Origin: Escherichia phage ekra | DNA: 64,000 nucleotides | Direction: 5' to 3' (one strand) | Sequence record: MN850644.1 | Shown here: positions 17,468-40,984 of the stretch, one piece after another | How the letters are laid out: the number at the start of each line of letters is the position of its first letter | Numbering within the stretch: position 1 is the stretch's first letter | The notes under the pieces: model-generated | What the model saw: the letters and a program-made list of their open reading frames with translations, nothing else | What the model was told of the DNA's origin: nothing | Databases searched by the model: none | Made by a program: the position numbers and the translations under genes

Positions 17468-17579
17468 AAGATATTGCGTAGCATCTGGATACTGATATAT
17501 ATATGTGATGCCTTGTAAGCATCTGCATTAAGACCTGCTGGTACTGCGTAAAGTGACTTACTCATATTTTATCTCTCTC

Positions 17580-18071
17580 TTAGTTATGTCTTGCAAACTC
17601 ACCATGAAGTTCTATTCGCTTTTTAATTACAGCTTCTTTTGCTTCTTCTACCGTTTTAAATCTTCCACAAAAGTATTCTTTATGGTAAAGCATGACTCTT
17701 GCTTTGTAAAGACCTGTTTGTTTACAAAAACTTACACCCTTCACACCAGTTTTATTATTCTTGTATATACCTCTATTCCTCTGATTTTGTGACTTTGTGC
17801 TAAGTCTTAAATTCTCCAACTTATTATTAGATTTATCAAGGTCTATGTGGTCTATCTCATATCCACTTGGTATCTCACCTCCAGACATAATCCATGCAAT
17901 ATTATGTGCATAGTACCTCTTCTTATTTATCTGGACTTGGATATAACCCTTCTTAGACCTTGTGCCAGCCACATTACCAGCAATAGCGGTACTGCAAAGG
18001 GTTACTCTCCAAATTAATAAACCTGTATCTGGTTCATATATTAGGTATCTTTCAAAATAACCCTTATTCAT
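17580..18071 (-). CDS. Free-standing HNH homing endonuclease with AP2-type DNA-binding domain
   Basis: YAHNIAWIM...EIDHIDLDKSNNKLENLRL (HNH) and NKTGVKGVSF...YKARV (AP2); paralogous to 30369-30869 and 40472-40984. Confidence 0.75.
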   Translation of the reverse strand: MNKGYFERYLIYEPDTGLLIWRVTLCSTAIAGNVAGTRSKKGYIQVQINKKRYYAHNIAWIMSGGEIPSGYEIDHIDLDKSNNKLENLRLSTKSQNQRNRGIYKNNKTGVKGVSFCKQTGLYKARVMLYHKEYFCGRFKTVEEAKEAVIKKRIELHGEFARHN

Positions 18072-18079
18072 ACTGTTAC

Positions 18080-18976: not shown

Positions 18977-19251
18977 TCAAAAGTTACGTTTGTTACTGCC
19001 ATTGCAGATTTGCATTTTGCAGGGTCTACAACGTGATAAAGTACACTACAGTTACCTGTGCTATCTGGTACAGGCTTTACCCATTGCTGCTTTATAGTTG
19101 GCTCCCCTAAGTCTTTGTAAGAGCCATCTGTAAAGTTGTTTACCATCTCAAGTGCAATTGGTTCTGGAACATGACCACGTATCATGTACATTTCACAACC
19201 ATTACCGCCTTCACTGACTAATGGTAAAATCTCCCACTTCTCTTTAGCCAT
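18973..19251 (-). CDS. hypothetical protein (92 aa)
   Basis: ORF. Confidence 0.45.
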   Translation of the reverse strand: MAKEKWEILPLVSEGGNGCEMYMIRGHVPEPIALEMVNNFTDGSYKDLGEPTIKQQWVKPVPDSTGNCSVLYHVVDPAKCKSAMAVTNVTFD

Positions 19252-19759
19252 TGTAAGTTGCCCTATAAACTGTCTCGAACTTCAACAGGAGAGATATTGC
19301 CAAATCTGTATAGTTGTTGTCAAGCACATCTGGCATATTATTTTTGATATATTTCTCTTGCTCTTCATAGGTCATCTTAGGGATGCTTAGGAGTCTATCT
19401 CCTTGCTTCTGGTTATCAGCTTTAGTTTGGATAAACCAGTTCGCACAGTGATGCTCACCACCCTTTGTAACAGGTTTGTGGTGGCCTAATGTGAAGGATT
19501 GACTACCTGTGTATCTGCAAAGTCTATTAAGTACTGTAATGGTGTTCTTCACAACAAAACATTCATACAGGTTATCTATGGTGTAATGCGGGTAGTAACG
19601 GAATAGTGCTCTTTCACGAGTACTGCCACGATTCCAGAGAATCATGTGATTGGAGTTAGAAGGGTCGTATTGGTGGGAGTCAATGAACTCTTGACGTTCC
19701 TCAAAGCTGAGTCTTAGCACTGACATTGCAGCAGAACGTTTTAGGTTTGACAGATACAT
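19244..19759 (-). CDS. hypothetical protein (171 aa)
   Basis: ORF; His-rich segment GHHKPVTKGGEHHCANW of unknown meaning. Confidence 0.45.
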   Translation of the reverse strand: MYLSNLKRSAAMSVLRLSFEERQEFIDSHQYDPSNSNHMILWNRGSTRERALFRYYPHYTIDNLYECFVVKNTITVLNRLCRYTGSQSFTLGHHKPVTKGGEHHCANWFIQTKADNQKQGDRLLSIPKMTYEEQEKYIKNNMPDVLDNNYTDLAISLLLKFETVYRATYNG

Positions 19760-21943: not shown

Positions 21944-24088
21944 TTACATAGAAACCCTGTCACGAATCTCAGCAATTTTTGCATCATTCATTCGGGATTC
22001 ACCTTTAATCTTAGTCCATCCCAGATATCCGCACACCCTGTTAATCACAGAGATGTCATGTGAATGGCAAACCTCACATTCTTCAACATCAGCCTTTGGT
22101 CTGTTACCACAATGTTCACAGATTGCTAAGTCAAAGTTAAGTCCCTGATAAAAACCCTTCAACATCCCTCTGGTAATACAACTTTTAAGTGCTGTTAAGT
22201 TTTCTGGGTTAGCTACCCTTACATACTGGATTCTACCACCTCTACAGATATGGAAGAAGGGTTCTTCTAAGTCCTGCTTCTCAAATGGTGTAATGTCTGC
22301 TGCAACATTCATATGGAAACTGTTTGTAAAGTATTCCTTGTCAGAAACGCCTTTGATAACGCCAAACATATCTCTGAACTGTTTTAGCTGAGTTCCACAA
22401 AGTGATTCTGCTGGAGTGCCATAGACTGCATATAAGAAGCCATCTTCATTTTTAAACTCTTCAGTCTTCATGTTGATATATTCCAGAACATCATATGCAA
22501 AACTACAGCTTCCAACTTCATGAAGTCGTTTACCTTCAGCAAGAACAGATAGCTCATCAAGCGCAGTAACCCCAAAAGAAGCTGTGAAGGACTTCACGAT
22601 ATCCCAGCCAACCTTGTCAGTAGGTTTCTTATTCCCTTTGTACAGGCCACCTTGTGTGAATGCAAGAGGGTTAGAACTTGCTGGCATATTAGCAATCATT
22701 TCGTAACGTTTCTTGTGGAAGCTGCGAATCATTTCTAGGTACTTATCAAGCTCTTTCCAGAAATCTAAGTCATTCTCTTTAGAATACTGGTAAATCATTG
22801 GTAAGTTCAAAGATACAGCACCAATGTTAGCACGACCAACGTAGAACTCTTCCCCATTCTCGTTAAAATATGGAGATAAGAAGGCTCTGCAACCCATCGG
22901 TGAAATTACCTTACCAGAACGCTCAAAAGCCTCTGCTACAGCACCATGTCCAGATACACTTAAGAAATCTGGATACATAGCTTTAGAGCAACACTCAATA
23001 GCTTTACTGTACAGGTGGCCTTGACAGATATTCTCATTATGTCTCTTCTGGTCATAAATATAAACCAGTTTAGGGAATACAACAGGCTTCTTGCTCTTAC
23101 CTTGTCCATTCATACGAACATCTAGGAGAGTGCTTGCAATCATGTATTGCAGTCGGTTATCTTCATTAGACATATCTGAGTCAAGTAACCCGAATGTCAA
23201 AGTTGTGAATGCAAAATCACCACGGCTACAAGGCACAGTATTGAGCTTCATTTCAAGAGACTGAAAACCTTGAGTTAATTCAATCTGTAGCTGCTCCATG
23301 ACATAGTTGTGGTAATGTTCTTTAGGAATACCATAAGCTGTTGCTTTTTCAGCATGGTAACGTAGAGACTTCTTAGCATACGGTACAAGTACCTTATCAA
23401 TCTCTGCTAAAGTAAAGCCACCAAATTGCTGTGCAGTTGCTGAAAGAACTACATCACCAATAACCTGTAAGGCTGACAGTACAGACTTCGGTTCACAGTA
23501 TTCAATGCCAGACATTTCAAAGCCACCTTTCAGCACTTTACCAATGTCAAACAAGCAACAGTTGATACCACCAAAAATCAGGTCTCTTAAATCATGGATA
23601 TAGATAAACCCTTTTTCAATGGCTTCAAGTTCCTCTGGTGTTAGGTGGTACTGTTTAAAGATTTCTTTAGTCAGGTAACCACGAATAATTGAGCCTTTTG
23701 TAGAAATTAAACTGCTGTCAAAATTAGCGTTTTCTCGGTCACCTAAGAAGAGTGTATCTTTGGTCTTCTGGTAGAGTTCATCCCAATTTTGAGCAACCTC
23801 TTTACGGTAATTTCTATATGTTGAGTAAGACTCATAAATCTCGTGATTGACTTCTGCCAAAGCACCTTCAACAATACTGTGAATATCATTTACTGAAATG
23901 AGTAAATTATTCTGCTTAGTAGATTTTACCAGAATCCTCATAAATGCTGACTCAAGAGCTTGGGTAACATCTGGTGGAAGTTCTTTATACCCAACCCTAT
24001 TAGCTGACTTTGAGACTGCTGCTAAAACTTTTTTGATATCAGGTTCTTCGAGTGAGCCATTCTTTTTAATAATCTGTACTTTGTTCAT
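21944..24088 (-). CDS. nrdD: Anaerobic ribonucleoside-triphosphate reductase (class III)
   Basis: C-terminal glycyl-radical motif RVCGYLG and zinc ribbon CEHCGN...CEVCHS; 714 aa. Confidence 0.85.
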   Translation of the reverse strand: MNKVQIIKKNGSLEEPDIKKVLAAVSKSANRVGYKELPPDVTQALESAFMRILVKSTKQNNLLISVNDIHSIVEGALAEVNHEIYESYSTYRNYRKEVAQNWDELYQKTKDTLFLGDRENANFDSSLISTKGSIIRGYLTKEIFKQYHLTPEELEAIEKGFIYIHDLRDLIFGGINCCLFDIGKVLKGGFEMSGIEYCEPKSVLSALQVIGDVVLSATAQQFGGFTLAEIDKVLVPYAKKSLRYHAEKATAYGIPKEHYHNYVMEQLQIELTQGFQSLEMKLNTVPCSRGDFAFTTLTFGLLDSDMSNEDNRLQYMIASTLLDVRMNGQGKSKKPVVFPKLVYIYDQKRHNENICQGHLYSKAIECCSKAMYPDFLSVSGHGAVAEAFERSGKVISPMGCRAFLSPYFNENGEEFYVGRANIGAVSLNLPMIYQYSKENDLDFWKELDKYLEMIRSFHKKRYEMIANMPASSNPLAFTQGGLYKGNKKPTDKVGWDIVKSFTASFGVTALDELSVLAEGKRLHEVGSCSFAYDVLEYINMKTEEFKNEDGFLYAVYGTPAESLCGTQLKQFRDMFGVIKGVSDKEYFTNSFHMNVAADITPFEKQDLEEPFFHICRGGRIQYVRVANPENLTALKSCITRGMLKGFYQGLNFDLAICEHCGNRPKADVEECEVCHSHDISVINRVCGYLGWTKIKGESRMNDAKIAEIRDRVSM

Positions 24089-29629: not shown

Positions 29630-29868
29630 TCGGATTCCTTAAAATATTTGTTAACCTTTAGCTCTCGTGTTTCAATATATTCTAGATGTTCACGTAGCTC
29701 TTGACGTTTAAGCATTAGGTGCTGCATTTGAGACTCAACAGCTTCAACTTCTTTAATTATTGACTCTCTAGCATTTGCAAGGATGCGCTCAAGTTCTTCA
29801 ATCTTACTGTCAACTTTTGCTACATGACTCACAGCTTTACTTTTGTTAAACATTTTATTCTCTCTCAA
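29605..29868 (-). CDS. hypothetical coiled-coil protein (87 aa)
   Basis: Heptad-like E/L/K/R-rich sequence. Confidence 0.4.
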   Translation of the reverse strand: MRENKMFNKSKAVSHVAKVDSKIEELERILANARESIIKEVEAVESQMQHLMLKRQELREHLEYIETRELKVNKYFKESECLTQENQ

Positions 29869-29874
29869 TAGTTA

Positions 29875-30372
29875 TCAAGCACAATTTGCTTTCATTACCT
29901 TATGGATTCTTTTTTCAGCATCTTCATAAGTTTCTTTAGTAATAAACTTAATTGCTGCAATATTGGCATTGTAGAAGAGTCTGAGCTTCGAGTCAATCCT
30001 TTTTGTCATTACATCGAATTTATGTTGAAGGTTTGCTTCACCATAGACTAGGCCACCTTTTGTGTAGTAGGTCTGAATAATGTAAAAGTCAAAAAATTCT
30101 TTTCCAAAGCTCTCAATATCTTTTTTAATATACTCAGAAGAAGTCTCGTAAGTCATCCAATCACTCTCCTTAGTGACTACCTTCTTCCGAGTCTTCCCAG
30201 CAACTTTTCTTTTTGTCACACTGTTAAGCTGTTTCTTTCCGATATAATATTGTCCAGTCTTCTTACAGTGCACTAAATAGACAAAGCCAAAATGTTTAGT
30301 GGGGTCAACTTCCCCACATAAAGATACCCAATGACCGTAGGTAGGGCAATTGCCAAATCCTTTAATCTTCAT
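29875..30372 (-). CDS. Possible GIY-YIG-type homing endonuclease
   Basis: FVYLVHCKKTGQYYIGKK resembles the GIY...YIG motif; adjacent to HNH endonuclease. Confidence 0.35.
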   Translation of the reverse strand: MKIKGFGNCPTYGHWVSLCGEVDPTKHFGFVYLVHCKKTGQYYIGKKQLNSVTKRKVAGKTRKKVVTKESDWMTYETSSEYIKKDIESFGKEFFDFYIIQTYYTKGGLVYGEANLQHKFDVMTKRIDSKLRLFYNANIAAIKFITKETYEDAEKRIHKVMKANCA

Positions 30373-30869
30373 TCATAAGCTTCTCCGTGATTTGAAAACT
30401 CTTTATGTAGTTCTTCTCTTTTCTTTGTGACTGCATCTTTGGCATCTTCAATACTGTCAAAATACCCCAGAAAGTGAGATACTCCGTGTGTCATAACTCT
30501 GGCCTTCCATTTTTGGTTAGCCTTATAGAAAGATACACCCTTAACTCCAGATGTGTTGTTGGAGTGTGTTCTTCTATTCCAAGAGTTTTCAGCTTGTGTG
30601 CAAACCCTTAGATTTAATCTCCGATTATCATTAGTAATACCGTTTCGATGGTCTACTCTGTTAGGTAGGAAACCGTCTGTGTACAGGATTGCTAAATCAT
30701 GAGCCATATAGGGTTTTCTTTTAATTTTTATCCTAATATAACCTCGCTTATGTGGTGTACCTGCAATGGAACCTATAACTGTTCTTTTAGCTGATTTCTT
30801 TATCCACGTAAAGACCCCTGTTTCGGGGTCATAGTGTAGATATTCTTTAAGTATCTGCTGAGTCAACAT
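30369..30869 (-). CDS. HNH homing endonuclease with AP2 domain (paralog 2)
   Basis: HYDPETGVFTW, GYIRIKIKRKPYMAHDLAILY, VDHRNGITNDNRRLNLRV, SGVKGVSFYKANQKWKARV; probable start at MLTQQILKEY. Confidence 0.75.
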   Translation of the reverse strand: MLTQQILKEYLHYDPETGVFTWIKKSAKRTVIGSIAGTPHKRGYIRIKIKRKPYMAHDLAILYTDGFLPNRVDHRNGITNDNRRLNLRVCTQAENSWNRRTHSNNTSGVKGVSFYKANQKWKARVMTHGVSHFLGYFDSIEDAKDAVTKKREELHKEFSNHGEAYE

Positions 30870-31893
30870 TTGGAGTCCAACCATACTTTTCAAATGAAAA
30901 AATATCTGATTTATTTCGCTCTTGATAAGCTAGGAAGAAATGCTGTTCCATTAACTCTAACGGCGTCTTTGTAACGGTCTGTCCATCCCATGACACATAG
31001 GTATAAGAGTCTTTTTTAGCATAAAGTTCATAGATAGCGTCAAGACACTCTTTGTAGGTCTCTTTACCCTCTAAAGCATTCATCACAGCTACTTTACCAG
31101 CACCTTTTAGGCCGAAGTAGTTGTCTGCATTATCTCCAGCAACAGCCTGATAACACAAGAATTTAAAACCTACACCAACTGTTTTTGCAGCTTTTGGTTT
31201 TGATTTGATAGGGCAATCCCAGATATTACCAACATTATTATCAGCGATAAAAATTAGTGGTGATTTTTCATAAGTCATATCAATACAATAAGTCCCTTCA
31301 GCTTGTCGAAGGTCTTTGTCAATACTCATAAGAGCAGCTTTCTTACCCATCTTTTCAGCTTTAGCAATTACGATTGAATCGGCTTCGAAGCCCCCCTTTA
31401 AGAGTTTGAACTCTGGTCTTGACAGGAGATACTCACGACAAGCAACTAAGTGTGTTGGTGTGACAGCATCTTTGCGGTTACCTTGATATTGGTGCTCGAG
31501 ACCTTTAATGTCTTTATGTTTATGCACACCTTTCTCTGTTAAATAACCTACCCAAGTTCTCTCTTTACCAACAACCTTAAGCCATTCCTGAAGCACCTGT
31601 TGAGTAGCCATGATAGCTTCTTTTTCACTCTTAGCTTCTTTCCAAGTCTGTCTTTCCCATTCATCTTCATCAAATGTCAGGCCAAGTTCTTCCACAAGGA
31701 TTCTCTGGTCTGCTAACCATCTTGCAGCATCTTTCGCATTATCAAATGGTTCAGATTCTTCTGCTGTGAGTTTATTGACATATTTATATTTTGCTTTCTC
31801 AACTACACAAGCACCTTTATAGGCAATACTGTCAGAGTCAATAAAAACATGTGTAACTGAATCGGGAAGTTTTGTTAATGTGTACTTCTCCAT
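30847..31893 (-). CDS. Putative 5-prime-3-prime exonuclease / flap endonuclease
   Basis: N-terminal VFIDSDSIAYKGA resembles FEN-family N-terminal motif; location in replication module; tentative. Confidence 0.4.
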   Translation of the reverse strand: MEKYTLTKLPDSVTHVFIDSDSIAYKGACVVEKAKYKYVNKLTAEESEPFDNAKDAARWLADQRILVEELGLTFDEDEWERQTWKEAKSEKEAIMATQQVLQEWLKVVGKERTWVGYLTEKGVHKHKDIKGLEHQYQGNRKDAVTPTHLVACREYLLSRPEFKLLKGGFEADSIVIAKAEKMGKKAALMSIDKDLRQAEGTYCIDMTYEKSPLIFIADNNVGNIWDCPIKSKPKAAKTVGVGFKFLCYQAVAGDNADNYFGLKGAGKVAVMNALEGKETYKECLDAIYELYAKKDSYTYVSWDGQTVTKTPLELMEQHFFLAYQERNKSDIFSFEKYGWTPNVDSADT

Positions 31894-31955
31894 TATGGCT
31901 CTCCATATGAAAAAGCCCCATACTAAGTACAGGGCTTTAAAGTAACTTTTAGAGA

Positions 31956-32813
31956 TTAGTCTTCTGTATCGAAGTCTTCATCTTCTTCGTCATCTGGGTC
32001 TGGCAAATCTTCATCATCACCATCATCAGAAGCATTCGAAGGTTTATGGTCTGTTGCGTCTTCTTCAGTGATTTCACCGTTATCTTCAACACCATCAAGA
32101 CCAAGCATAGCCAGTTCATCTTCATCAAGTTCAGGTTCACCATTAGCACCGTTACCACCAGTGTAAGGTACAAGAGTATCAATGATAAACTGTTCCTGAA
32201 TAGGTTTTGTCAGAACATTGTTCTCAAAAGTGTAGAAGTGAGTAGAAAGAATCACACTACCAAAAGAACCGTTACCAACTGCGATATCTGGATGAATTAC
32301 ATCATAGTTCTTGTCATCTTCATGTTTATCAGATGCTTGAGCTTTGATTTTCTTCATCGGCTGCTTAACAGCTACACGCTTACCATTTACTTCTTCAATC
32401 AGCATTACAGGGAATGACTGTTTAGCTGTCCATACAGCACCATCTTTATAAGCTGCTGCACGACTTACTTTCAAGATGTAGTAAGTGTCTGCTTCAAAAG
32501 GTGGCTTACAACCAAACTTCTCTTCAAAGTCATCTGCGTCAACTGCTTCAGTAGTAACTTTATCCCAGCCTTCTGGATTTTTCTTAGACTTAGTAAACTC
32601 TTTAAAGAGCTTGTTACCGTCTTCTGCCAGAATTGATACGCTGTAGTTACAATCTTTTCCTGGGAATTTTTTATCAATAGACTTACCTTTTCCCGGACGT
32701 GGTGAAGTGTTCAGGTAATAAAACCAGACATCTTTCAGCAGGTAACGCAGAGTTTGACGTTCAGTACCGTTGTACTTCTCTACCGGAGCTTTCATTTTAA
32801 CAACTTTAGACAT
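31956..32813 (-). CDS. Single-stranded DNA-binding protein candidate
   Basis: Extremely acidic C-terminal tail DDGDDEDLPDPDDEEDEDFDTED; position next to primase-helicase. Confidence 0.45.
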   Translation of the reverse strand: MSKVVKMKAPVEKYNGTERQTLRYLLKDVWFYYLNTSPRPGKGKSIDKKFPGKDCNYSVSILAEDGNKLFKEFTKSKKNPEGWDKVTTEAVDADDFEEKFGCKPPFEADTYYILKVSRAAAYKDGAVWTAKQSFPVMLIEEVNGKRVAVKQPMKKIKAQASDKHEDDKNYDVIHPDIAVGNGSFGSVILSTHFYTFENNVLTKPIQEQFIIDTLVPYTGGNGANGEPELDEDELAMLGLDGVEDNGEITEEDATDHKPSNASDDGDDEDLPDPDDEEDEDFDTED

Positions 32814-33287
32814 TATTTAAACCTCTATCTCAATTTATGAAGAGTACCAATTCTAATTTGTTGATACTCTATTGTCAAATACTAATTACTGGAAGTTGTG
32901 CTTATCTTTAGAAGCTGCTTTACGTGCAGTTTTTCCAGTTCTTACACGTTTTTCTTCATAGTATTTTGCTGGTTTTCCAGCAGTGGCTTTTAAGGAATCC
33001 CCAAAAACTTTTTCAAATGCTTTAGAGTGTTTCATGATATTCTCCGATATACTTGATATTCAAACACATTTTCTTTAATTATAAACAGCCAACTAATATT
33101 ATGCTGAGGCAGTGCAATGATGACTGTAATCGTGCTTTGGCAGAAATCTTCTTTTATCTCAACTCCCCCATTGCATTTCATGAGGAGCATTCTATAGAAC
33201 CTATCAACCTTTGTCAAACACTCTTCCTGAAATTTATTTAAACTCTTTTCTTCAAAGAAGGGTATGAACCCCTCTCTTTTATAACTA

Positions 33288-40471: not shown

Positions 40472-40984
40472 ATGATTACAGAAATTCGTCTTAAGGAGCT
40501 ATTGGACTACGACCCCGAAACAGGGGTCTTTACTTGGAAGTTTAGAGAAGGTAATGCAAACTTTAACTCTAGATTTGGAGGTAAGAGGGCTGGAAACTAC
40601 AGAACAAATACTGATGGACACAAGTCAGTTCAGTTGCTGATTGATGGAAGGGGTTACCAAGCAAATCGTTTAGTTATCTTGTATATGGATGGATATCTAC
40701 CTGATAAAACCTTACAGGTTGACCATAAGAATGGGGACGGTTGGGACAATAGGTACTTGAATTTAAGGGTTTGTACAGCTTCACAAAACTCTTGCAATCG
40801 GTCAAGAGAGTCCCCATCTGGGTTGCCAAAAGGTGTACAGAAGATAAGTAAAAGGTTTCGAGCAATGATACGTTTACAAGGTAAAAACTATCATCTTGGT
40901 ATGTTTGACACACCAGAAGAAGCCCATAAAGCTTACTGTGAAGCTGCTATTAAACTCCACGGAGAGTTTGCAAAACTATCTTGA
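40472..40984 (+). CDS. HNH homing endonuclease with AP2 domain (paralog 3), abutting the polymerase gene
   Basis: DYDPETGVFTW, HKSVQLLIDGRGYQANRLV, VDHKNGDGWDNRYLNLRV; probable start at MITEIRLKE. Confidence 0.75.
   Translation: MITEIRLKELLDYDPETGVFTWKFREGNANFNSRFGGKRAGNYRTNTDGHKSVQLLIDGRGYQANRLVILYMDGYLPDKTLQVDHKNGDGWDNRYLNLRVCTASQNSCNRSRESPSGLPKGVQKISKRFRAMIRLQGKNYHLGMFDTPEEAHKAYCEAAIKLHGEFAKLS

Follow-up and report, generated by a model that had tools for sequence, protein, structure and literature searches.

Two small genes for putative endonucleases adjoin the exonuclease gene of Escherichia phage ekra (MN850644.1), which raises the question whether both are homing endonucleases arranged in tandem, as an earlier note on this DNA had it, or whether only one of them is mobile. 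We studied the locus within the window, by which we mean the whole stretch of 64,000 nucleotides that was analysed. The window belongs to Felixounavirus (Felix O1-type) and shares 99% identity with E. coli phage heid. Judging from the comparison with related genomes, we consider it quite probable that the locus combines one mobile HNH homing gene, set into the exonuclease gene at its end, with one resident, non-mobile GIY-YIG core nuclease.

Both nuclease genes are real open reading frames on the minus strand, and the positions and nuclease families given for them in the earlier note were borne out. The neighbouring gene (30847..31893, minus strand) encodes a FEN/T7 gene 6-like 5'-3' exonuclease (exo), with a match to the exonuclease family phrog_107 (1.9e-62) and weak matches to the 5_3_exonuc and PolI 5'-3' exo profiles; relatives carry it annotated as exodeoxyribonuclease. 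The HNH-AP2 gene, of the free-standing homing endonuclease type, occupies 30369..30884 (minus strand) and encodes 171 aa from the ATG at 30884, which is also the start in GenBank homologues. Counted from its first TTG the reading frame covers 30369-30893, and a further ATG lies at 30869, so that the HNH start overlaps the final 23-47 nt of exo depending on the start chosen. The HNH stop overlaps by 4 nt (ATGA) with the start of the single-domain GIY-YIG gene (29875..30372, minus strand, 165 aa, SegE_GIY-YIG Pfam family). Because the pair is transcribed leftward it sits downstream of exo, on its 3' side, and the upstream position claimed before is true of window coordinates only.

The HNH protein at the exo site scored 31.1 bits against the Pfam family HNH_3 (cut-off 24.8) and matched phrog_99 at 3.9e-71. 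Two paralogues elsewhere in the window, at 17580-18071 and 40472-40984, reached 69.6 and 45.6 bits against HNH_3, respectively. AP2 was the sole C-terminal Pfam match in all three proteins (E 4.7e-3, 4.5e-4 and 6.5e-6), with each single-sequence score (26.8 bits for the paralogue at 40472-40984) below the AP2 gathering cut-off of 33.3 bits. A family profile built from seven HNH sequences matched I-HmuI (1u3e, 1.5e-5) as well as the AP2 domains of the AP2/ERF protein WRI1 (4.5e-4) and of TEM1 (6e-3); the AP2 domain of this HNH-AP2 class is thus supported at the profile level and not at the single-sequence Pfam threshold. Residues D73, H74, N86, N95 and N98 were invariant in the alignment of the same seven sequences. 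The reading frames were intact and the gene showed dN/dS values of 0.06-0.23. No NCBIfam names for an HNH or GIY-YIG nuclease were found. By these matches the gene product combines an I-HmuI-like HNH nuclease with an AP2-like DNA-binding domain at its C-terminus. It shares with I-HmuI and HNH-AP2 homing endonucleases the N-terminal HNH_3 domain, the DH...N...N...N motif and the AP2-like C-terminus, and the gene is already annotated as an HNH homing endonuclease in heid.

The distribution of the HNH gene among relatives was patchy. Alignments of the window with phages Barry and momo showed a single clean gap of 491 columns, with flanks otherwise ~99.9% identical. This gap defines a presence/absence cassette of 491 bp (30386..30876, minus strand) that holds most of the HNH gene, is missing in HNH-less relatives and is set inside the last ~24 nt of exo. 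The HNH-less junction reads ...CATTTCTGGGTAGCATATCAAGAGAGAAATCCAAAAGATAATTTCTCTTTTAAGAAATATAATTGGGAGCCGTGTATGAATG... Bas63 differed from the window by the same clean 491-bp indel. The gene was present in heid, garuso and bumzen and absent from Barry, momo, tootiki and Bas63, and since such empty-site variants exist, the empty-site comparison favours the claim of the earlier note that the HNH-AP2 gene is of homing type. In two evenly spaced samples of hit lists, drawn from 258-301 genomes, the exo site was occupied in ~22/60 and 13/34 relatives (~37%) and empty in ~38/60 and 21/34 (~63%), and each of the two genera Felixounavirus and Mooglevirus had both states. The HNH genes at this site fall into at least three divergent allele classes, with 53-58% identity between classes and with conserved 5' and 3' ends in common. 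Between the window and phage Moogle the HNH gene showed a dS of 1.45 and the flanking exo gene a dS of 1.26, both of which are saturated inter-genus values. An HNH dS this close to that of the flank fits long residence with repeated loss equally well as recent transfer.

The sequence next to the cassette was recoded. Over positions 29700-33000 the window and Barry differed by 26 mismatches, 17 of which fell within 55 bp at the 3' end of exo directly adjoining the cassette (30881..30935, minus strand) and 4 within 30378-30382. The 17 mismatches of this hyper-divergent patch compare with 3 in the remaining ~3.2 kb, that is, 31% divergence amid surroundings that are ~99.9% identical. At the protein level, HNH-carrying genomes encode an exo C-terminus of the type ...HFFLAYQERNK.D.F.F.KYGWTPNV... 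and HNH-less genomes one of the type ...HFW[VI]AYQERNPKD.F.FKKYNWEP.MNED. The C-terminal type tracked the presence of the HNH gene across three allele classes and two genera (Felixounavirus and Mooglevirus), and this co-segregation also held among the annotated rows of the spread sample. We infer that the 55-bp patch represents a co-conversion tract together with a recoding for self-immunity. The cassette brings a substitute exo C-terminus with its stop codon, and its 3' end restores, for the gene that follows, both the ribosome-binding site GGAG and the stop/start overlap ATGA, so that the operon stays intact. Sigma-70 promoter and terminator scans over 29.8-30.9 kb gave nothing above shuffled expectation that could serve the cassette as its own promoter or terminator, and we assume that it is co-transcribed with exo.

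The 3' end of exo is the insertion site of the HNH gene and likely also its target. When an HNH-less relative co-infects the cell, the HNH enzyme would bind and nick or cut the intact exo 3' end, and repair by recombination from the HNH-carrying genome would copy the cassette across along with ~55 bp or more of adjacent sequence. The recoded, co-converted stretch would then probably shield the carrier from self-cleavage. Our literature search found no published experiment, biochemical or genetic, on cleavage or homing by any Felixounavirus HNH gene, which sets the family apart from the I-HmuI type; homing is deduced here from comparative anatomy. The window gene also differs in its site, because the cassette sits within the last exo codons and supplies a new C-terminus instead of lying within an intron or cleanly between two genes. 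Patchy distribution, empty sites and a recoded flank, on the other hand, are features of HNH-AP2 homing endonucleases that the window gene has in common with them.

A passive HNH gene that is no longer mobile, and whose patchiness stems from ancestral presence followed by repeated deletion or by ordinary recombination, would be in line with the roughly equal divergence of the HNH gene and its flanks between Felixounavirus and Mooglevirus, and the conserved allele ends could support ordinary homologous exchange. Independent deletions would, however, not yield what is seen in the HNH-less genomes of the two genera, all of which have one particular alternative form of the exo C-terminus, intact, along with an identical junction. 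Divergence that is limited to 55 bp within nearly identical surroundings is moreover the pattern of homing-type co-conversion, and the intact reading frames, the invariant catalytic residues and the low dN/dS also speak against a passive insertion, as does the independent assortment of three paralogues at three sites in near-identical genomes. We therefore regard loss of mobility as very unlikely and retain homing into the exo 3' end as the preferred explanation of the cassette.

The two paralogous sites gave a similar picture. The earlier note had placed all three HNH paralogues next to conserved genes, and this held for exo, for prs and nadV, and for the DNA polymerase gene. Its description of them as close paralogues stood as to homology (E 1e-20 to 1e-44 in pairwise alignments) and not as to closeness, since pairwise identity was 31-41%; the protein at the exo site was 41% identical to the one at 17580-18071 and 40% identical to the one at 40472-40984. 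Likewise, each of the sequence blocks that the three were said to share was exact in two of the proteins and not in all three. The paralogue between prs and nadV (17580..18071, minus strand) is also a presence/absence cassette: it was found in 61/242 records, and its 471 bp stand in place of an intergenic hairpin seen in tootiki. The paralogue just 3' of the DNA polymerase gene (40472..40984, plus strand) is polymorphic too, with the allele type of the window in 24/236 records and with other alleles and empty sites also occurring. Among near-identical genomes the three paralogues assort independently. A position beside essential genes of replication or nucleotide metabolism is likewise shared with HNH-AP2 homing endonucleases, a class to be compared with the IPA-HNH genes of phage ICP1.

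The second gene of the pair is of a different kind. Its product matched PF19835 (SegE_GIY-YIG) with an E value of 9.4e-28 and 97.4 bits (cut-off 25), and the catalytic Tyr, Tyr, Glu and Asn residues were intact and invariant. The AlphaFold model (pLDDT 96) resembled most closely the catalytic domain of I-TevI, followed by PD-T4-3, and its best structural matches in the PDB were all GIY-YIG nucleases. Score, catalytic residues and predicted fold make this a strong GIY-YIG assignment, contrary to the earlier note, which had called it weak. No sequence-level relatives were found among solved structures with either the single sequence or a 42-sequence profile, and tblastn revealed no further copy in the window.

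The nuclease domain takes up approximately residues 12-150 of the 165, with no further Pfam match, and the predicted structure comprises a single compact domain and a terminal helix. With the T4 Seg proteins and I-TevI the protein shares the Pfam family and the nuclease domain; those enzymes are modular, whereas the window protein is without linker, zinc finger, NUMOD or HTH module. All ten of the long GIY-YIG homologues that we scanned carried NUMOD3, NUMOD1 or HTH tails, which the window protein lacks, and its nuclease domain is 45-49% identical to that of NUMOD3-bearing homologues. Short and long forms were interspersed by similarity, the nearest neighbour being of the same class in 105/160 cases versus 50% expected by chance. 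We therefore rejected short and long forms as separate clades, and the data do not demonstrate an ancient single domestication. Orthology with T4 SegE was likewise rejected, as the two proteins lack significant similarity (BLASTP E 0.36) and SegE itself scores 36.5 bits on PF19835. We also asked whether the downstream orf87 might encode a DNA-binding domain that had split off from the GIY-YIG protein, and rejected this, as it gave only weak coiled-coil matches and no NUMOD or HTH.

In the genomes of relatives the GIY-YIG gene was a fixture. It was found at the identical position in ~296-300 of 301 exo-bearing Ounavirinae records, comprising 252 at 80% identity or more, 44 at 60-80% and the Wc4-1-like phages at ~51%. 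The position was conserved in Felixounavirus, Mooglevirus, Kolesnikvirus and Pectobacterium phage Wc4-1; in every case the gene follows immediately on the 3' side of exo or, where present, of the HNH gene, and it is translationally coupled to whichever of these lies upstream. No empty site was found among the ~300 records from four Ounavirinae lineages, down to 51% protein identity, and the sole defect seen was a split gene in phage EC6. Divergence ran in step with the neighbours: identity to Erwinia phages was 61% for GIY-YIG, 54% for exo and 39% for MazG. The dN/dS of 0.00-0.06, compared with 0.05-0.18 for exo, indicated strong purifying selection. With empty sites for the HNH gene and a fixed position for the GIY-YIG gene, the locus appears to hold one mobile gene beside a resident nuclease and not a tandem pair; of the tandem homing endonucleases claimed before, the HNH member stands and the GIY-YIG member does not.

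Empty sites would likewise be missing if a homing endonuclease gene had swept to fixation. Both genes might then be active, free-standing homing endonucleases in tandem, the GIY-YIG gene having merely become fixed in the sampled phages. Several observations are compatible with this, namely the Pfam family named for T4 SegE, the 45-49% identity of the domain to that of NUMOD-bearing homologues with classic homing-endonuclease architecture, the interspersed short and long forms, the name "GIY-YIG homing endonuclease" in GenBank records, and the frequent clustering of homing endonuclease classes of different kinds at one locus (PMC10055350). A sweep is disfavoured by the purifying selection and by the missing DNA-binding module. 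Homing would not maintain such low dN/dS values once all genomes carry the gene, the parallel divergence of gene and neighbours and the uniform occupancy across four lineages point the same way, and the protein has no BLASTP-detectable similarity to SegE, which itself reaches only ~36 bits on the Pfam model. We thus consider two active homing genes improbable. Being universal, the GIY-YIG gene is also unlike the sporadic genes of the T4 Seg and I-TevI type, so that of the homing endonuclease proposed earlier the nuclease family remains and the homing does not, in view of the missing empty sites, the purifying selection and the absent DNA-binding module.

Most likely the GIY-YIG protein is a nuclease of HEG origin that has been domesticated and now works for the phage itself. 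The role that we favour, as a guess, is that of an endonuclease working in partnership with exo, in host-DNA breakdown or on replication and recombination intermediates. Neither a Holliday-junction resolvase nor a host-DNA endonuclease is named in the Felix O1 annotation, which is weak evidence because many Felix O1 genes are hypothetical. In phage T4 the breakdown of host DNA, which feeds nucleotide recycling, is begun by endonuclease II (DenA), a small GIY-YIG enzyme of a single domain. DenA is structurally further from the window protein than I-TevI and shows no sequence-level similarity to it. A role like that of DenA would leave the sparing of phage DNA unexplained, as we know of no modification of Felix O1-type DNA.

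The protein might instead be directed against defence systems or competing phages, with retron msDNA or satellite or competitor DNA as its substrate, and not be a partner of exo in DNA metabolism. HEG-derived domesticated nucleases are so employed in phage ICP1 (Odn; PMC8263062, PMC10055350), and PD-T4-3, which ranked second in the structural comparison, is a restriction enzyme of the GIY-YIG type with specificity for 5hmC DNA. A further small nuclease from a Felixounavirus, gp77 of phage Bas63, was described with a GIY-YIG domain and counters retron Ec67 (PMC11482910). It is, however, a different gene: by locus tags the exo-adjacent GIY-YIG gene of Bas63 is bas63_0057, and bas63_0077 is the orthologue of window 19244-19759, so that we rejected gp77 as functional data for the gene studied here. 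Accessory genes for counter-defence are moreover usually variable, and this gene is universal, syntenic and coupled within a replication/nucleotide operon, all of which makes a counter-defence role instead of one beside exo appear unlikely, if somewhat less so than homing.

The HNH part of these findings is largely ordinary and already known, with HNH genes annotated in 99%-identical genomes such as heid. Its low novelty follows from the description in 2010 of six HNH endonuclease gene copies in Felix O1 (Whichard et al. 2010, PMC3185647). Three of the Felix O1 sites are those of the window, namely exo (ORF106), prs-nadV (ORF128) and DNA polymerase (ORF95), although the window allele at exo shares only 53% identity with ORF106. 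That paper lists the HNH genes; empty sites, allele classes and the recoded exo tail lie outside its analysis. The exo-site HNH locus is a clear natural example that could be put to experimental use directly in E. coli K-12: its site exists in an empty form, 55 bp of its flank are recoded, three classes of allele occur there, and phages with and without the HNH gene can be paired whose DNA around it is ~99.9% identical.

The result for the GIY-YIG gene is the more useful of the two. Neither phylogenies nor the engineering of these therapeutic phages should handle the gene as mobile, and as a universally conserved, exo-coupled small nuclease it is a reasonable candidate for an unassigned step in phage DNA metabolism or host takeover. 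Short homologues were also near-core in T4-like cyanophages, with 406 records compared with 462 for NrdB (~88%). We tentatively propose, rating it just short of an even chance, that the protein is a domesticated homing-endonuclease domain with a job for the phage, be it as exo partner in host-chromosome breakdown or branched-DNA processing or in counter-defence, and that the short forms represent a so far overlooked gene that is conserved in two myovirus groups unrelated to each other. Database records label this gene either "homing endonuclease" or "NAD synthetase", and the latter label is wrong across hundreds of Ounavirinae and cyanophage records.

The locus consists of one mobile HNH-AP2 gene, which has inserted between an exonuclease gene and a nuclease gene that is a resident member of the core genome. 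All genes concerned lie on the minus strand: the 5'-3' exonuclease gene (30847-31893), the HNH open reading frame, the GIY-YIG open reading frame (29875-30372), orf87 and a MazG-like gene. The HNH frame spans 30369-30893 when read from its first TTG; homologues in GenBank start at the ATG at 30884, and a further ATG lies at 30869. The HNH start overlaps the 3' end of the exonuclease gene, and the HNH stop overlaps the GIY-YIG start in an ATGA. The earlier note had described two nuclease genes at the exonuclease gene, and both were found there with matching families. The pair is located 3' of the exonuclease gene and not upstream of it, where the note had placed it. In a nucleotide database search Escherichia phage heid was 99.1% identical over the 3.2 kb surrounding the gene pair, and its record already labels one frame 'HNH homing endonuclease' and the other 'GIY-YIG homing endonuclease'. 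This 3.2-kb locus was matched by 258 phage records, nearly all from Felix O1-type myoviruses of the subfamily Ounavirinae. Campylobacter phages A132 and A126 (MG065664, MG065668) and one Staphylococcus phage record also showed ~93% identity to the locus and are probably mislabelled or contaminated entries.

The HNH protein matched Pfam HNH_3 with 31.1 bits (cut-off 24.8) and AP2 below threshold. A profile of seven HNH sequences matched the HNH homing endonuclease I-HmuI with its N-terminal part (1.5e-5) and plant AP2/ERF domains with its C-terminal part (WRI1 4.5e-4, TEM1 6e-3). These profile matches therefore support the proposed HNH-AP2 architecture at the sequence level, the AP2 part by sub-threshold single matches and a small profile. 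PHROGs assignments agreed with Pfam for both nucleases. The alignments confirmed that the HNH genes at 17580-18071 and 40472-40984 are homologous to the one at the exonuclease gene, but with 31-41% identity they are not the close paralogs they had been taken for.

Empty sites were found in relatives. Barry, momo, tootiki and Bas63 have no HNH gene here, and the end of their exonuclease gene directly overlaps the GIY-YIG gene by 11 nt; alignment with HNH-less relatives showed a single clean 491-bp indel (30386-30876). Over 29700-33000 the window differed from Barry at only 26 positions; 17 of these were within the 55 bp of the exonuclease gene adjoining the cassette (30881-30935) and four within 5 bp on its opposite side. 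The cassette brings a new exonuclease C-terminus and stop codon, while its 3' end retains the GGAG site and its spacing before the GIY-YIG start. All six HNH-carrying genomes examined, representing three HNH allele classes and two genera, shared the exonuclease tail ...HFFLAYQERNK.D.F.F.KYGWTPNV..., and all HNH-less Felixounavirus and Mooglevirus genomes examined encoded ...HFW[VI]AYQERNPKD.F.FKKYNWEP.MNED. In an evenly spread sample of exonuclease matches, the 348-aa tail type was always accompanied by an annotated HNH gene, and the 346-aa type by a GIY-YIG gene immediately next to it (13 versus 21). By junction query ~22 of 60 sites were occupied and ~38 empty, such fractions describing evenly spaced samples of match tables and not a full classification.

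There were at least three HNH allele classes at this site (window/Moogle, Felix O1/adrianh and VpaE1) with 53-58% identity between them and conserved ends. The frames were intact, with dN/dS of 0.06-0.23. Alleles compared from the window (30369-30869) and four relatives (loci L004, L014, L015 and L016) were near-identical in the first ~22 and last ~18 residues and ~50% identical in the middle, which suggests either cassette exchange by recombination in the ends or a diversifying DNA-recognition part. In all these features the HNH gene is built as free-standing homing endonuclease genes typically are; from this we infer cleavage and over-inheritance.

The prs/nadV site was occupied by an HNH gene in 61 of 242 records, a 471-bp cassette standing in place of an intergenic hairpin. 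In HNH-less tootiki (locus L020, ~1314-1360) this is a short GC-rich hairpin, GGGGCTTTCAAGCCCC, compared with window 17495-18079; divergence at the prs 3' end was mildly raised (~11 mismatches in 150 bp). At the polymerase site the window-type allele was present in 24 of 236 records, and other alleles and empty sites also occurred. Phage LF110P2 carries the HNH gene at the exonuclease gene and lacks the one at prs/nadV; the HNH sites thus assort independently. The anaerobic ribonucleotide reductase gene nrdD (21944-24088, minus strand) is one unbroken 714-aa frame in the window and is split in Bas63 and UAB_Phi87 by an intervening sequence with another putative homing endonuclease gene, so that nrdD is one more place in the genus where a mobile element is polymorphic. 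The sign of the GC skew switches at ~38 kb (~37700) and reverts at ~49 kb (~49000). The first flip coincides with the point at which minus-strand genes give way to the DNA polymerase gene on the plus strand (start 37732); it is a boundary of divergent transcription and nothing evidently beyond that.

The observation of tandem nuclease genes was confirmed. The homing reading was right for the HNH gene, but mistaken on an important point for the GIY-YIG gene, which is constrained and keeps its position in relatives. Its domain call, considered weak before, was strong (Pfam SegE_GIY-YIG, 97.4 bits, cut-off 25). By tblastn, 252 records carried the gene at ≥80% identity and a further 44 at 60-80%; the exonuclease was present in 301. 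The same position, immediately behind the exonuclease gene and with the stop of one overlapping the start of the other, is kept in Mooglevirus, Kolesnikvirus and Pectobacterium phage Wc4-1. Identities to the window protein in Mooglevirus, Erwinia phages and Wc4-1 were 86%, 61% and 51%, against 90%, 54% and 53% for the exonuclease and 77%, 39% and 39% for MazG, so that its divergence was in step with that of its neighbours or lower. Pairwise dN/dS was 0.00-0.06, equal to or below that of the exonuclease (0.05-0.18), the weight resting on within-genus values because inter-genus dS is saturated. Unlike the HNH gene, this gene does not act like a mobile element. Among ~300 records a single disrupted copy was noticed, in Escherichia phage EC6 (NC_027369, 58566-59058), where it is annotated as two fragments of 87 and 91 aa; a frameshift error in sequencing and a genuine pseudogene are the possible explanations.

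The wider GIY-YIG family comprised 1359 representative clusters, about half short and half of 220-390 aa. GIY-YIG homing enzymes usually bind DNA through NUMOD3, NUMOD1 or HTH tails; all ten long members scanned carried one of these, and the domain scan found none in the window protein. Residues G29, Y32, Y43, G45, K47, W72, Y75, S78, E112 and N135 were unchanged across 42 homologues, and an AlphaFold model from this alignment reached a pLDDT of 96. No sequence-level relative was found among solved structures, and similarity to T4 SegE was not detectable by BLASTP. Short and long forms were interspersed by similarity, the closest NUMOD-bearing proteins showing 45-49% identity within the nuclease domain, which fits an origin of the domain from true homing enzymes or an exchange with them. 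One short homologue per genome was also present near nrdAB in 406 cyanophage records, compared with 462 with NrdB.

The GIY-YIG gene occurs universally, is strongly constrained, is translationally coupled to a T7 gene 6-like exonuclease and lies among MazG, Nrd, Td, Prs and NadV genes; for these reasons our preferred guess is that its product acts in DNA metabolism, in host-DNA breakdown or branched-intermediate processing. From established knowledge, such a role would resemble that of T4 EndoII, or of T7 gp3, which acts with gp6. The Felix O1 annotation, in which many genes are hypothetical, names no other endonuclease of this kind. A counter-defence nuclease is a live alternative: Bas63 gp77, described with a GIY-YIG domain, counters retron Ec67 (PhageMaP preprint, PMC11482910). 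This protein was rejected as the product of the exonuclease-adjacent gene, which is bas63_0057, gp77 being bas63_0077. The orthologue of bas63_0077 in the window is a 171-aa frame (19244-19759, minus strand) for which domain scans gave no GIY-YIG match and no more than a motif resembling HNH (HHKPVTKGGEHHCANW...N) and weak matches to HNH PHROGs (8.6e-5); its best family was phrog_3500, of unknown function. The domain assignment of gp77 in PMC11482910 may need checking.

Felix O1 has six HNH genes and their number varies in relatives (PMC3185647, PMC4837284, PMC8300805); these papers contain no homing experiments on them. Novelty is low because both genes and the HNH family of Felix O1-type phages have already been described. 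The sole part of some new value is that the GIY-YIG gene is now read as a conserved gene with predicted nuclease activity that has probably been domesticated. A full-text search found no papers mentioning 'NAD synthetase' together with GIY-YIG for a phage, and no sequence support was found for this name on the family. The gene is so named in other records, the source of the label being phrog_447, and the name is carried by family members (29875-30372 in the window; homologues e.g. L009 3920-4375 and L010 3944-4378) in hundreds of Ounavirinae, cyanophage and Stenotrophomonas phage records.
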